Shown piece after piece: positions 19,155 through 38,593 of a stretch of DNA of 64,000 nucleotides. Within the stretch, counting starts at the first letter, position 1. The number at the start of each line of letters is the position of its first letter. Both the position numbers and the translations under genes were made by a program. The notes under the pieces were generated by a model. It ran no database searches. It saw only the letters and a program-made list of their open reading frames with translations, and was not told where the DNA came from. Origin of the DNA: Yuukianura sp. NJ FZ-2021 (lineage: Eukaryota); NCBI GenBank assembly GCA_046563655.1, contig CM102290.1:12090001-12154000 (forward strand), given 5' to 3'.

Positions 19155-19724
19155 CCTGCAAGAGGAAGGAAGACCAGCAAGCTCCACCAGCCGAACACCA
19201 AACTTCTTCACCCAAGAAACCCCGTTTGGTTTTCACAGATCTCCAACGACGTACGCTTCAGGCTATTTTTAAAGTGAGTTAAATTATATATAATAATATT
19301 ATAATATTAATTACATTAAACATTAATGTGACCTTTGACCTTGTGACCTCCTTAGGAAACAAAGCGACCTTCTAAGGAGATGCAGGTGACGATTGCACGT
19401 CAACTGGGTCTCGAACCAACGACTGTTGGCAACTTTTTCATGAATGCACGTCGTCGCTCCATGGACAAATGGAAAGAAGAGAGCGAAACCACCAAGGCCC
19501 AAGGCCCCACCCCTTCAAACACGAACGGCGGCAACCAAGGCGCACAGAGCACTACTGTCACCTCCACGTCCTCCTCCCAGCATCCACCACAGCAGCAGCA
19601 CTCGCAGCAGCTAGGTCACCAAGGTCAAACGGTCCACGTCGTCACCGTGCATCACACGGGCCTCTCCAACCAACAAGTTCAAAATGACGCCCAGTCACAC
19701 CTCCACTCGTCAGAGGCCGTGTGA
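19155..19724 (+). CDS. onecut: Onecut-class CUT-homeobox transcription factor, last two coding exons (linker, homeodomain, Q/H/S-rich tail); CUT-domain exon lies upstream of the window
   Basis: Exon 19155-19273 (after TTTGTAG, phase 1) reads (A)CKRKEDQQAPPAEHQTSSPKKPRLVFTDLQRRTLQAIFK. GT-AG intron 19274-19355. Exon 19356-19724 reads ETKRPSKEMQVTIARQLGLEPTTVGNFFMNARRRSMDKW...EAV*. The atypical homeodomain F48/M50 (NFFMNARRR) and the ACKRKE linker are diagnostic of Onecut/HNF-6. Confidence 0.97.
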
Positions 19725-22700: not shown

Positions 22701-23059
22701 TAAAATCCAGGGAGCTGGAAGGAAGGAAGAACCAAAGAGTGAAGTATATTGTCTAATCCCGCAATTAAATTAACTTTACATTCATCTGTAAGTAGGGAGA
22801 CTTAAGTTAGTTAGGGAAATACAAATTATAAAAATGGTTGGTTAAAAGTATTGAAATAAATCACTTAGATACTCCTCATCACATTGATCATGGCTCTTAA
22901 TTTAGTTATTTTAATTCAACTAATTAACTCATTCAATTAATCTGATAAGCTCAAAACCACAAATGCATGCATGCCCCACCGGCAAAATACTGTTGAACAA
23001 AAATGTTTAGGTTTATGCTTCTCAGAGGATGCGCATGACTGACCAACTTTCTGGAAAAA

Positions 23060-24145
23060 AAACATGAACTTTTAGTCCATGTTTGTTTGTTTTTTTTCAA
23101 AATTTGACGAAAGACTTGATGCTCGATGTTGGACTTTTCAATATTTCTTAAAATTGGTCATGTTTTGTGAAAGTTTTTCCCGAAGAGATTAGCTCTCTAT
23201 CGCTTTCCGTTCTCAAGATATAAGTTTTCAAAATTATACTTTACATTTTCAATAAATTGGAAAATCCATATCTCGGGAACGAAAGGTGAGAGAAAGGTAA
23301 ACTCTTCGCTCCTGAATTCACTATAAATTTTCAAAATTTCATTTTAATTTTCAAAAACTTTCAAAATTCATAACTCGGGAACGAAAAGCGATAGAAAGAT
23401 AAACTCTTCGCCCCTGAATTCACAAAAATAAGGCGTATTTTTAGAAAATATAAAAAGGTACCCTCAGATTTTGACGAAGTTTCGAAAAAATCCATGGACT
23501 ATTGTCCATGGTTTTTTTTTTCAAAATTTGACGAAAAACTTGATGTTCGATTTTGGAGATTTCAGAATTTCTAAAAATTCTTCATGTTTTTTGAAAGTTT
23601 CTCGTGAAGAGATTAGGTCTCTATCGCTTTCCGTTCACGAGATATAAAATTTCAAAATTTCATTTTAATTTTAAAAAACTTTAAAAATTCATAACTCGGG
23701 AACGGAAAGCGATAGAAAGGTAAACTCTTCGCCCCTGAATTCACAAAAATATGTAGTATTTTTAGAAAATATAAAAAGGTACCCTCAGATTTTGACGAAA
23801 TTTCGAAAAAATCCATGGACTATTGTCCATGGTTTTTTTTTCAAAATTTGACGAAAAACTTGATGCTCGATATTGTACTTTTCAATATTTCTTAAAATTG
23901 GTCATGTTTTTTGAAAGTTTGCCTCAAAAGATTAGCTCCCCATCGCTTTCTCTTCGCGATATATAAATTTAAAAAATTTTATTTAGATTTTCAATAACTT
24001 CGAAAATTCATACTTCGGGAACGAAAGGTGATTGAGAGGTAAACTCTTCGTTCCCGAATTCAAAAAATATTGAGTATTTTTAGACATTTTACTAAAAAGG
24101 TACCCTAAGATTTTGACCAAATCACATAAAACAAAGCATGGAATT
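23060..24145. repeat. Tandem array of ~321-bp fold-back units
   Basis: Palindromic nodes CCATGGACTATTGTCCATGG at 23492-23511 and 23813-23832 (321 bp apart), with degenerate nodes at ~23063-23081 and ~24137. The first unit is longer (~430 bp) through an internal duplication. Units contain a second inverted pair, e.g. TCTATCGCTTTCCGTTC 23620-23636 / GAACGGAAAGCGATAGA 23700-23716. Confidence 0.95.
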
Positions 24146-24325
24146 TGAATAGGTTGAAACGACAAGAGTTTTATAACAAGTTTTTCTATCCTTGGTTGCT
24201 CTAGCAACTGAAATGTTCATCAAATCCGTATTTTTCAAAATTCTCGATCAGTTAATTGCCAGAGAAGATTTTCGTTTTTGCAAATTAATTTTGGATTCTG
24301 TGATTTTCCATTTTGAAGTCATACT

Positions 24326-25594
24326 TCAAAGGCTTTTGGATTCTTTCTTTTTTCTGCCTTTCTTCACTTGATCTGCAACGCCGCTTTTCAAAACCTTTCC
24401 ACTCCGAAGCCGAATTCCATTCTCTTGAGCTGCATCTCCTCTGCAACAAACGAATTAAAGTAAAACTAAAACTCAAATCCAAAAGTTAACAAAAATTTCA
24501 GATTTTTAAACAAAATTCATTAAATCCAGAAAGTATTTTTGGTTACGCTGGGTCTGGAGTCGGTGGTTGTTGTCTGATGAGCATACAGTATTCGTTAACA
24601 GCCACCAAATTGTAGAATCCGCTTTCCATGTCAAATGTCACTGGCTCCACATTTCTAAAAATGGAATTTAAACATGTATTTTCTTAAGTTTTAAAGTCCA
24701 CCAGAAAATGCTGTCCTCAAAAAGCATTTGACTTCAGAAATTTGAAAGTTTGAAATTTTAATTACGGATGAGGTGAAGCGGGTTCCAGATTTTCAAAATG
24801 ACCCGAATTTGCGCCAATTCCAGAGTAGAAGAAGTGGAAAGTGACTGGCCAATGAGGGGTCTCTCTGGTTGGCAGAATGTTGAAGAGTTCGGTGCTCATC
24901 ATCCGAACTACCAGGGGGTTGAACTCATACAATTCGCTGGCAGCGATCAGCTCCACAAATGTTCCGTATTTGCCCAGTCGGTGCATGTACCTTCCATAGC
25001 GACGTTTCAGCGCCTCCTCTTCGGTTTCATCTTCGTCATGTTCAGAAGGTCGTCGTCCATAATCTTCGCTTTGTGCAGTAATGTCGTTGACGAAGGTAGG
25101 CCAGTTCGCGGGTTCCAAAATGTGGTTCACTTTTCGTCGGAAATCAGAAACTGGTCAGAAACAGTTAGTGCGAAAAATGTAAAATGTTTAACACAAGTGA
25201 TCGTACCAACTTCCTCTCGAATGCGTTCATGAGCTCCCTGGTGACCAAGGAGTGCCTGCGAGATTGCGCGGAAGAGACAGTTCCCGTCCATGCGGGTTTC
25301 AATGACCTCGAAATGACTGACCTCATTGCGAGAATTGACGACGCCCAGTCGATAGAATTGGGTCAGCATCGTGTCCATTTTGTCACATGCTGAAGTCGCT
25401 TGGTCTTGAACTTCGTCTGGTGGTGGTTCAGAAGTATTTGGATCATGCGCAAGTTGTTGTTCTGGATTGGGGCTTTGGACGGGCGCTGACTCTGTGTCCA
25501 TGTCAATGGAATCCATCGATTCTGGACCAAGCGATGGAGTTGAGTCAAGTGTGATCGGGGTCGTATCCATTTGATCATTTGAGTCCGATGCCAT
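24326..25594 (-). CDS. OTU-family cysteine protease (deubiquitinase-like), ~331 aa, 4 predicted exons
   Basis: Exons (minus strand) 25594-25207, 25150-24766, 24654-24547, 24440-24326, joined by GT-AG introns of 56, 111 and 106 bp that keep one open frame (996 nt). OTU motifs: MDGNCLFRAISQAL (D103/C106), YGTFVELIAASELY, GHFE (H247). Acidic/Pro-rich N-terminus; C-terminus ...ENGIRLRSGKVLKSGVADQVKKGRKKKESKSL*. Exons 1-2 are secure; exons 3-4 rest on weaker donors (GTAATT, GTAACC). Confidence 0.85.
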
Positions 25595-25834
25595 AATGGA
25601 TATCGAAAATTCGACAGCGAGTTAGTGTCAAGTCAACTGGTTCACGCTTTGGTCGAACGCAAACGCCTTTCCTTTTCACGAGTAATTTTTCTAAGTTTTT
25701 GTAGAAGGTTTGTTGACTTTGATTTTCTTTAACGTTAAAAAAATAACATTTCGTTGTCAAGGAAGCTTGGCTTTTGTCGTTCCTATTTTCGCACTGCAAT
25801 TATTTTACAAAACTTTTGGAATAAATTTGGAAAT

Positions 25835-25980
25835 AATCCATGGACTATAATAGTCCATGGATTTTTTCAAAATTTGACGAAAAACTTGATGTTCGGTTTT
25901 GGACTTTTCAGTATTTATTAAAATTTTTAAAGTTTTTTGGAAGTTATTCCCAAGAGATTAGCTCTCTATCGCTTTCCGTC
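25835..25980. repeat. Partial copy of the 321-bp repeat unit with a perfect 29-bp palindrome
   Basis: AATCCATGGACTAT-A-ATAGTCCATGGATT at 25835-25863, followed by TTCAAAATTTGACGAAAAACTTGATG...AGATTAGCTCTCTATCGCTTTCCGT as in the left array. Confidence 0.92.
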
Positions 25981-26743: not shown

Positions 26744-27776
26744 ATGGGAAACTGTTTCAAGCGCCAAGCTGCTGATGACGTTTCGTTACTTAGAGGAAAC
26801 GTTGAGAGAGAGTCAAGTTCATCAGACCAGTTACATCAAGATGCCTATCAGGTACGTCACCTGTAACGATTGTTGGTCTTGTTTATGTTAGTAATTACTA
26901 ATTGAATAGCATTCAAAGATGTTAATCCAGCTAATGCTTAGAGCTGACACTTATCCCCTTATGTCAATATGTCACTTGGTCATATTGACTAGTCAAATAG
27001 TCTTGCGTAATCTTAACTCCTTGTTTCTTGAAACGAGTTCCATTCTGTCGTATGCCATTTTCGTTAAGTTGTTAAGGGAATCAGTTCAGTATTCGGAAGT
27101 GAACGACATAATACCCAGATTCAAGTGTTGTGTTTGTACTAAAGGATAAGCTAGACTAATTCGATTCTTCTGAATTACAGGAACCGAACGTTCCAGTATA
27201 TTATCCATCGCCTAACGTTAGACGCCCAGTTACTCAGCTGACAGAAGAAGAGCAGGTGAAAATAGCGAAGCGAATTGGATTGATTCAGCATCTGCCGAGT
27301 GGGACTTATGACTTAACGACCAAAACAAGGGAGTAAGTAGTAACACTGTTGAAGTTCTTCACAAAACTATTACTGCCAAGTACTATCCTGCTACTGAACA
27401 AACCTATTGCATGAACTAAGGCTCTTCGGATACCAATTTGTATGTATAACCGTCTTTCTTTTTTTCAGATGTGTAATTTGCATGATTGAGTTCATACCGG
27501 GAGTCCTGATTCGTTATATGCCATGTAAGAATTTTGCTATTTTCTTAAGTTATTTACTATCCATTGACAATGCAGGTTGTTGCATTTTGTTCTTCTTTAT
27601 TCCTTACAGGTATGCACGTTTATCACCTCCACTGCATTGATTCCTGGCTTATGAGAAGTTTCACATGTCCTTCTTGTATGGAACCAGTGGAGCCAGCGAT
27701 ATTCAATACCTACAACATCGATACCTTTGATGCCTTAGCAGCTCCACCACAGCAGCCAACCGCCGGTCAACAATGA
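26744..27776 (+). CDS. RNF11: RING-H2 finger protein 11 (E3 ubiquitin ligase), 160 aa, 4 coding exons
   Basis: Exons 26744-26851, 27181-27332, 27469-27524, 27610-27776, all GT-AG and frame-consistent (483 nt). Protein MGNCFKRQAADDVSLL...VPVYYPSP...QLTEEEQVKIAKRIGLIQHLP...RECVICMIEF...RYMPCMHVYHLHCIDSWLMRSFTCPSCMEPV closely matches RNF11, including the MGNC acylation motif and RING-H2. Confidence 0.97.
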
Positions 27777-38351: not shown

Positions 38352-38593
38352 CAAGGTTCCTTGACAACGAAAAATGAATTTTCTTTAGCAGGTTGAGTAT
38401 ACCTCGCTTGTTGACAAAAAAAAATGGAAAAAAAAAATATTGGTACCAATTCGTATGTAAAATAAATTTAAAAAATTCGGCTGTATTGTTATGACTACGT
38501 TACCATGAAATCAAAGACACTATTTTTTGCAAAATCGAAAAAACATGAGGTATTTCTCCACCTGTTAAAGAAAATGAAAGTCAACAAACCTTG
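38352..38593 (+). mobile_element. MITE copy 1 (hAT- or P-superfamily-like; CAAGGTT...AACCTTG termini)
   Basis: Terminal and subterminal inverted repeats (ATTTTCTTTAGCAGGT.. / ..ACCTGTTAAAGAAAAT); 8-bp TSD GTTTTAAG (38344-38351) / GCTTTAAG (38594-38601); homologous to 41226-41489. Confidence 0.85.

Follow-up and report, generated by a model that had tools for sequence, protein, structure and literature searches.

A lineage-restricted OTU protease gene of Yuukianura sp. with a putative 3' end and a LANA-like motif

The DNA analysed here (the window) is a stretch of 64,000 nucleotides from Yuukianura sp. NJ FZ-2021 (GenBank assembly GCA_046563655.1, contig CM102290.1, positions 12,090,001 to 12,154,000 of the forward strand), and all positions below are counted from its first letter. 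On the minus strand, from 25594 to 24326, lies a gene for an OTU-type cysteine protease that can be read as four GT..AG exons with compatible phases, the last of which is putative and would encode a short tail with the motif IRLRSGK, resembling the nucleosome-binding peptide of LANA from KSHV (Kaposi's sarcoma-associated herpesvirus). We moderately favour the reading that this is a single-copy cellular OTU gene, the 3' end of which is not established, and that the LANA-like motif is a single, unconserved occurrence, since at least three 3' ends are possible and no relative carries the motif.

Exons, relatives and fold of the OTU gene

When joined, the four exons give 996 nt (331 codons) with no internal stop; in this frame residue 106 is the Cys of DGNC and residue 247 the His of GHFE, IRLRSGK spans residues 303-309 and the basic cluster KKGRKKK begins at residue 320. 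The introns are all short (56, 111 and 106 nt) and all bounded by GT..AG. This layout had been put forward in an earlier note on the same DNA, and re-translation and scripted joining reproduced its bases, coordinates, frames, exon boundaries and Cys106; the two in-frame TAA codons that it named (24762-24764 and 24543-24545) were each found inside a GTAA donor. The part of the gene up to the third exon consists of:

25207 to 25594, minus strand: exon 1, from the ATG at 25594 into the first part of the OTU domain, which contains DGNC (codon of Cys106 at 25277-25279)
25151 to 25206, minus strand: intron 1, 56 nt, GT..AG, with an intron at the same place in L001 gene 1
24766 to 25150, minus strand: exon 2, with the remaining OTU core and GHFE (His247 codon 24798-24800)
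24655 to 24765, minus strand: intron 2, 111 nt, with a GTAATT donor that contains the in-frame TAA at 24762-24764
24547 to 24654, minus strand: exon 3, encoding the beta-hairpin that is conserved at the C-terminus in this family (GFYNLVAVNEYCMLI)

Exon 1 opens with about 90 residues rich in acidic residues, Ser and Pro, followed by the first OTU motif, DGNCLFRA. The open reading frame (ORF) of exon 1 matched the Pfam OTU family (PF02338) over residues 103-147 with an E-value of 1e-4 and 23.2 bits (cut-off 23.3), which covers half a domain only, and exon 2 alone gave no Pfam OTU match. P0002, a relative with 48% identity to exon 2, scored 36.1 bits against the same family, the cut-off of which was reached by 8 of the 12 relatives scanned. 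A phmmer search with exon 2 against 1.84 billion representatives returned 16 relatives at E <= 0.001, four of them at E <= 1e-10, with the best match at E 2.5e-20 and 50% identity and the next at 48% identity; no close orthologue was found among these representatives, the nearest being 50% identical. With the same query, a word-index search of longer proteins gave 92 candidates, none at E <= 0.001, and no related locus was found in viral contigs or in prokaryote genome contigs.

Both the catalytic-type Cys in D-G-N-C and the C-terminal His of the domain are present (Cys106 of DGNC and His247 of GHFE, with Glu at +2). G116, H117, F118 and E119 are invariant in 7 of 7 sequences of the relatives' alignment, as are G220 and H221 in 14 of 14 sequences of a wider alignment. 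Evidence on the fold comes from a structure model of P0002, not of the window's own protein, with a mean predicted local distance difference test (pLDDT) of 78 and a predicted template modelling (TM) score of 0.76. In Foldseek this model had 50 PDB matches at E <= 0.001, with OTUD1 (4bop, E 1e-7), DUBA, OTUD3 and nairovirus viral OTU proteases on top, and look-alikes in the ESM Atlas were OTU clusters (top score 0.95). The likeness to OTUD1, OTUD5/DUBA, OTUD3 and the nairovirus enzymes lies in the fold (Foldseek E 1e-7 to 1e-4, TM score on the target 0.5-0.66) and in the Cys and His motifs; sequence identity, however, is only 14-22%, and two features set this family apart from them, an additional beta-hairpin at the C-terminus (the product of exon 3) and a long insertion that separates the helices.

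This hairpin also bears on the exon structure. Exon 3 matched residues 240-261 of P0002 (BLASTP E 0.001), a G-[YF]-Y hairpin after the GHF motif is common to many relatives, and in the P0002 model its strands are confidently predicted at 245-253 and 256-261, with all downstream residues predicted to be disordered. Exons 1-3 are colinear with P0002, a single uninterrupted ORF in which their equivalents follow in order, and intron 2 is supported by the colinearity of exon 3 with this ORF. L001 gene 1 has introns at the positions of introns 1 and 2 of the present gene. Exons 1-3 are supported by homology.

Matching Pfam families, phmmer relatives, the fold of P0002 and the Cys and His motifs all bear out the OTU-type identity assigned earlier: by these comparisons the gene encodes an OTU-type cysteine protease of a small, fast-evolving and lineage-restricted branch of the superfamily, and it is real and probably functional. 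Its Cys/His pair would cleave ubiquitin or a ubiquitin-like modifier.

The loci of three relatives could be inspected in metagenome contigs. L001 carries two tandem OTU paralogues on one contig (5560-6800 and 7120-8270), both of them intron-containing. In the second, the post-hairpin stop lies inside a perfect GTAAGT and is directly followed by AATAAA, so that this gene may have two alternative 3' ends. P0002 is encoded by L002 (347-1183), an intronless and possibly processed copy on a 1.5-kb contig; in comparison with L001 gene 1 its tail is shortened by a TAA inside a 28-nt block common to both, and AATAAA follows about 125 nt past the stop.

The 3' end and its LANA-like motif

Beyond exon 3 there are at least three possibilities for the message: termination at the TAA of 24543-24545, splicing to 24465 in another frame, or splicing to 24440 in the frame of RLRSG. 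The features concerned are:

24543 to 24545, minus strand: stop of the unspliced model, an in-frame TAA right after exon 3, inside the GTAACC donor
24441 to 24546, minus strand: putative intron 3, 106 nt, GTAACC..TTGCAG, GC content 0.24
24326 to 24440, minus strand: putative exon 4, made up of a split codon, 37 full codons and the stop TGA
24395 to 24415, minus strand: IRLRSGK, the LANA-like motif, preceded by Gly at 24416-24418, with the codon of the second Arg, the candidate arginine anchor, at 24404-24406
24344 to 24364, minus strand: the basic cluster KKGRKKK, residues 26-32 of the tail peptide, which looks like a nuclear localisation signal
24285 to 24465, minus strand: alternative terminal exon behind a TAG acceptor (AG at 24466-24467), in the other frame, with a 60-residue tail that lacks RLRSG

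The TAA at 24543-24545 stands 14 residues past the Cys of the hairpin, and P0003 and L001 gene 2 end 15-16 residues past it. From the donor of putative intron 3, the TAG acceptor for an exon start at 24465 is the first well-formed one, 25 nt upstream of 24440. Among the four nearest AGs, two have G at -3, which makes a poor acceptor; those for exon starts at 24471 and 24465 open the other frame, with tails of 60-62 residues, and only the CAG at exon start 24440 opens the RLRSG frame, which translates as GDAAQENGIRLRSGKVLKSGVADQVKKGRKKKESKSL up to the stop. The frame, splice sites and motif coordinates of the C-terminus spliced together in the earlier note therefore stand, but 24440 is not the sole acceptor, and the one at 24465 leads into another frame.

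Putative exon 4 was examined for coding character and for matches elsewhere. Its codon-usage log-likelihood, scored against 488 codons of the window, was -10.6, a value equalled or exceeded by 70% of 2543 random stop-free windows of 37 codons; with so small a training set this is weak evidence, which still lends exon 4 no support. GC content was considered as a further sign of coding, as exon 4 (0.43) stands out from its flanks (0.24 and 0.30), and was rejected, since 0.43 merely matches the window average of about 0.40. The 37-residue tail matched no Pfam family, no PDB sequence at E <= 10 and nothing usable in the ESM Atlas, and the 42-residue stop-to-stop ORF around exon 4 gave 15 candidates among 5.8 billion proteins, none of them at E <= 10. 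Apart from a parallel in L001 gene 1, described below, putative exon 4 is not supported beyond its splice signals, and translation of the RLRSG frame has, in our estimate, somewhat less than an even chance.

If translated, the tail is by its sequence a striking LANA mimic. The LANA peptide used in nucleosome work contains PPGMRLRSGRST (excerpt of PMC11381367), and its GMRLRSGR aligns with GIRLRSGK of the putative tail (..NGIRLRSGKVL..) with six identical and two conservative positions, Ile for Met and Lys for Arg. The chromatin-binding motif of IL-33 is given as MXLRSG in the quoted text of PMC8750818; taken strictly, M-x-L-R-S-G does not match the tail, which has I-R-L-R-S-G and agrees at the specified positions except for Ile in place of Met. 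The motif itself was thus found where it had been placed, at 24415-24395, and its likeness to LANA and, bar Ile for Met, to IL-33 is close. A consensus for nuclear localisation signals is K-[KR]-x-[KR]. A translated tail would be expected to bring about import into the nucleus and to dock on the acidic patch of H2A-H2B in the manner of LANA.

The resemblance to LANA is that of a short motif, not homology. It covers G-[M/I]-R-L-R-S-G-[R/K], corresponding to LANA residues 5-13 within the peptide 1-23, and the basic cluster that follows. In LANA, however, the motif sits at the N-terminus of a viral episome tether, whereas here it is at the C-terminal end, on a putative exon; Met6 of LANA is Ile here, and nothing in the sequence corresponds to the second strand of the hairpin formed by LANA. 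With IL-33 the tail has in common the L-R-S-G core and a hydrophobic residue two positions earlier, again Ile here for Met. By chance, RLRSG would turn up 0.20 times in the window translated in all six frames, which contain LRSG four times.

Conservation among the relatives does not extend to the motif. RLRSG, searched for as R.RSG, was absent from all 18 related proteins, each of them at most 50% identical, and from all three readable genomic tails (L002, L001 gene 1 and L001 gene 2), which are rich in Gly, Asp and Glu; LRSG occurs in one of the 18 (P0006), within the hairpin region and not in a tail. When the DNA of exon 4 was compared with the tails of L002 and L001 genes 1 and 2, no similarity was significant, the observed scores being reached by 312, 485 and 432 of 500 shuffles. 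At the protein level, a comparison of L001 gene 2 with the tail read in the RLRSG frame was not significant (76 of 1000 shuffles reached the score), and the tail in the alternative frame against L001 gene 1 was treated as not significant (29 of 1000 shuffles, uncorrected for six tests). In the relatives the region after the hairpin is a variable, disordered tail.

Genomic setting

Among the 129 ORFs of at least 75 residues in the window, no transposase, reverse transcriptase or Rep/helicase was found with Pfam, and three ORFs had Pfam matches, namely a homeodomain, OTU and RING-H2. With four family members as tblastn queries, a single copy of the OTU gene was detected in the 64 kb. The exon at 19356-19721 (plus strand), 4.6 kb from the OTU gene, encodes the homeodomain end of an ONECUT transcription factor; its best matches are arthropod proteins, with the springtails Allacma fusca (92% identical across 39% of the query) and Folsomia candida near the top. 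Judged by this one conserved exon the genome is probably that of an arthropod, possibly a springtail; a nematode origin, suggested at first by the short introns and TTTCAG-like acceptors, was rejected on these matches. On the other side, 2 kb upstream of the OTU gene and on the other strand, a RING-H2 exon at 27549-27773 (plus strand) resembles E3 ligases (Pfam zf-rbx1 E 3.6e-7, below the cut-off; zf-RING_2 E 1e-5). Repeats close to the gene are:

23040 to 24122, no strand assigned: three repeat units in tandem on the downstream side of the OTU gene, each about 320 bp long and containing an inverted repeat
25815 to 25979, no strand assigned: directly oriented partial unit of that repeat, 82-88% identical, on the upstream side of the OTU gene

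The internal inverted repeat of the 320-bp unit is 101 nt long and 74% complementary, and no further copies of the unit were found in the 64-kb window. No transposon termini were recognised, this local direct repeat being all that flanks the gene. A 29-nt inverted match of 97% identity connects 25705-25733, just upstream of the OTU start codon, with 38564-38592, 13 kb away.

The family also has distant relatives in mobile elements. P0008 matches exon 2 (E 7e-6, 39% identity), has a Pfam OTU match and shares a 90% cluster with P0018, which has C2H2 fingers and a reverse transcriptase domain (RVT_1, E 4e-19). Together these two proteins describe a retrotransposon ORF in which the OTU domain is N-terminal and is combined with two C2H2 fingers and a reverse transcriptase.

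Competing readings and nucleosome docking

Several results weigh against the reading favoured here, in which the motif is an isolated occurrence in a cellular gene. Chance would yield G[LIVM]RLRSG[KR] 2.8e-4 times in a window and 0.017 times in a proteome of 8 million residues, although this rarity argues for a second look rather than for function, since a few such chance matches are inevitable over very many windows. KKGRKKK stands 11 residues past the motif and so echoes the order of LANA, in which a nuclear localisation signal at residues 24-30 comes just after the chromatin-binding residues 5-22 (excerpt of PMC4982378). L001 gene 1, the closest relative, seems to carry an intron followed by a short terminal exon at the same position: a block common to this gene and the intronless L002, identical at 23 of 28 nt (a score reached by none of 300 shuffles), lies downstream of an intron-like insert that ends in a pyrimidine tract and TAG. 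The donor of putative intron 3, GC/GTAACC, is identical to the intron 2 donor of L001 gene 1, the next exon of which is supported by homology.

To these is added a structure prediction, in which the 37-residue putative tail was co-folded, without alignments, with the histone-fold parts of H2B-like and H2A-like proteins of a giant virus. It scored 0.90 (0.91, 0.89 and 0.90 in the individual runs) against 0.01 for the best of three controls; among solved complexes 51 of 78 attain the pass mark, among mismatched pairs 2 of 108. The runs agreed in at least 80% of contacts, with a partner pLDDT of at least 56. In the predicted complex the second Arg (R12, codon 24404-24406) contacts E53 and E84 of the H2A-like and E141, L142 and H145 of the H2B-like protein, the first Arg contacts H145, S148 and E149 of the H2B-like protein, and the Ile (I9) contacts E48, Y49 and A52 of the H2A-like protein. 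These contacts are positional counterparts of those published for M6, R7, L8 and R9 of LANA, where, in the passages of PMC9040877 that describe them, R9 meets H2A E61, D90 and E92, R7 the C-terminal helix of H2B, and M6 and L8 run along helix 2 of H2A; the predicted docking likewise puts the second Arg among the Glu residues equivalent to E61 and E92, has the first Arg face the H2B C-terminal helix and places the hydrophobic residues along helix 2 of the H2A-like protein. The pass shows likeness, and it may be memory of the solved LANA-nucleosome complex. Docking of the tail on the acidic patch, as envisaged in the earlier note, is predicted in so far as the tail took up the LANA pose on stand-ins, the histones being those of a giant virus and the complex possibly memorised. 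The two stand-ins are encoded by adjacent genes on the minus strand of a 912-kb giant-virus contig (L003, 362-889 and 1158-1562) and have eukaryote-like acidic-patch residues.

With canonical splice sites at the putative last intron, these results can be read to mean that exon 4 is used, that KKGRKKK imports the protein into the nucleus, that GIRLRSGK docks on the acidic patch through its second Arg, and that the OTU domain acts on nucleosomal ubiquitin. In BAP1/ASXL1, arginines are known to dock a deubiquitinase on the acidic patch (bioRxiv 10.1101/2023.02.23.529554, in excerpt), so that the general architecture, which the earlier note had not recognised as described, has a precedent; that complex (PR-DUB), an H2AK119 deubiquitinase, has in common with the present case the concept of acidic-patch arginines that position a deubiquitinase on the nucleosome, but in the excerpted text it is a UCH-family enzyme with its arginines in a structured loop and with extra DNA clamps, whereas here the candidate is a flexible linear motif on an OTU enzyme. 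No description of an OTU enzyme with a LANA-type motif was found in literature searches that were not exhaustive. Removal of ubiquitin from either H2A or H2B had been suggested; H2B ubiquitin is disfavoured as a target, since in the quoted portion of PMC11381367 ubiquitin on H2B Lys120 (H2BK120ub) abrogates LANA binding, which ubiquitin on H2A Lys119 (H2AK119ub) does not, and an H2AK119ub-type substrate would be more plausible. Against docking altogether stand the competing acceptor that opens another frame, the unsupportive codon test, the absence of the motif from every relative and genomic tail, the stand-in histones and possible memory behind the co-fold, and the Ile in place of the Met that LANA buries in a hydrophobic pocket (PMC9040877, in part). 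On balance the LANA-like motif probably either stays untranslated or does not work as an anchor. Anchoring to nucleosomes through the tail is doubtful, and the full chain from exon usage to nucleosomal ubiquitin is rather unlikely; it is likewise unlikely that a short last exon has equipped an OTU deubiquitinase of an animal with a LANA/IL-33 mimic and a nuclear localisation signal that tether it to the acidic patch for an H2AK119ub-type reaction, as a third independent invention of the same arginine-anchor peptide, put to use in aiming an enzyme. A histone deubiquitinase as such we consider improbable.

The gene had also been described as mobile and transposon-encoded, that is, as cargo or a remnant of an element of Helentron, Ginger or non-LTR type, the product of which would serve the element, for instance by countering its silencing. 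OTU domains do occur in Ginger1 transposases (PMC2836005, in part) and in Helitron/Helentron ORFs (PMC4067079, in part), so that a transposon-borne OTU is not new in itself; in distant relatives C2H2 fingers and a reverse transcriptase are joined to the OTU domain, other relatives include two genes in tandem and a copy without introns, and the gene sits between units of the 320-bp repeat. What this locus has in common with Ginger1, Helentrons and the OTU-C2H2-reverse transcriptase proteins is, however, the OTU domain: it has no transposase, Rep or reverse transcriptase in its surroundings, is present once in the window, contains introns shared in position with the 50% identical L001 gene 1, and is flanked by host genes; the repeats beside it are tandem, direct and local to this place, without recognisable termini, and the relatives linked to a reverse transcriptase are matched at the modest level given above. 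A mobile origin is thus very improbable, and a role in transposon counter-silencing highly so; membership in a mobile element is not shown, and the sequence is best read as that of a single-copy, intron-containing cellular gene. The locus might, on the other hand, be an unexpressed or decaying duplicate with noise for downstream open frames. The nearest relative among the 1.84 billion representatives is only 50% identical, the surroundings are gene-poor with the gene embedded in repeats, and L002 illustrates that family members acquire premature stops; but no stop interrupts exons 1-3, which retain both catalytic residues (Cys and His) and a complete hairpin, and we assign this explanation a low probability.

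As the evidence stands, the favoured reading adds to the OTU superfamily a lineage-restricted gene with a putative 3' end. If the tail were real and bound nucleosomes, it would be the first LANA-type anchor on an enzyme; a viral and cytokine peptide solution would have arisen again in an invertebrate gene, and anchor and nuclear localisation signal together would form a compact natural module for aiming a deubiquitinase at nucleosomes.

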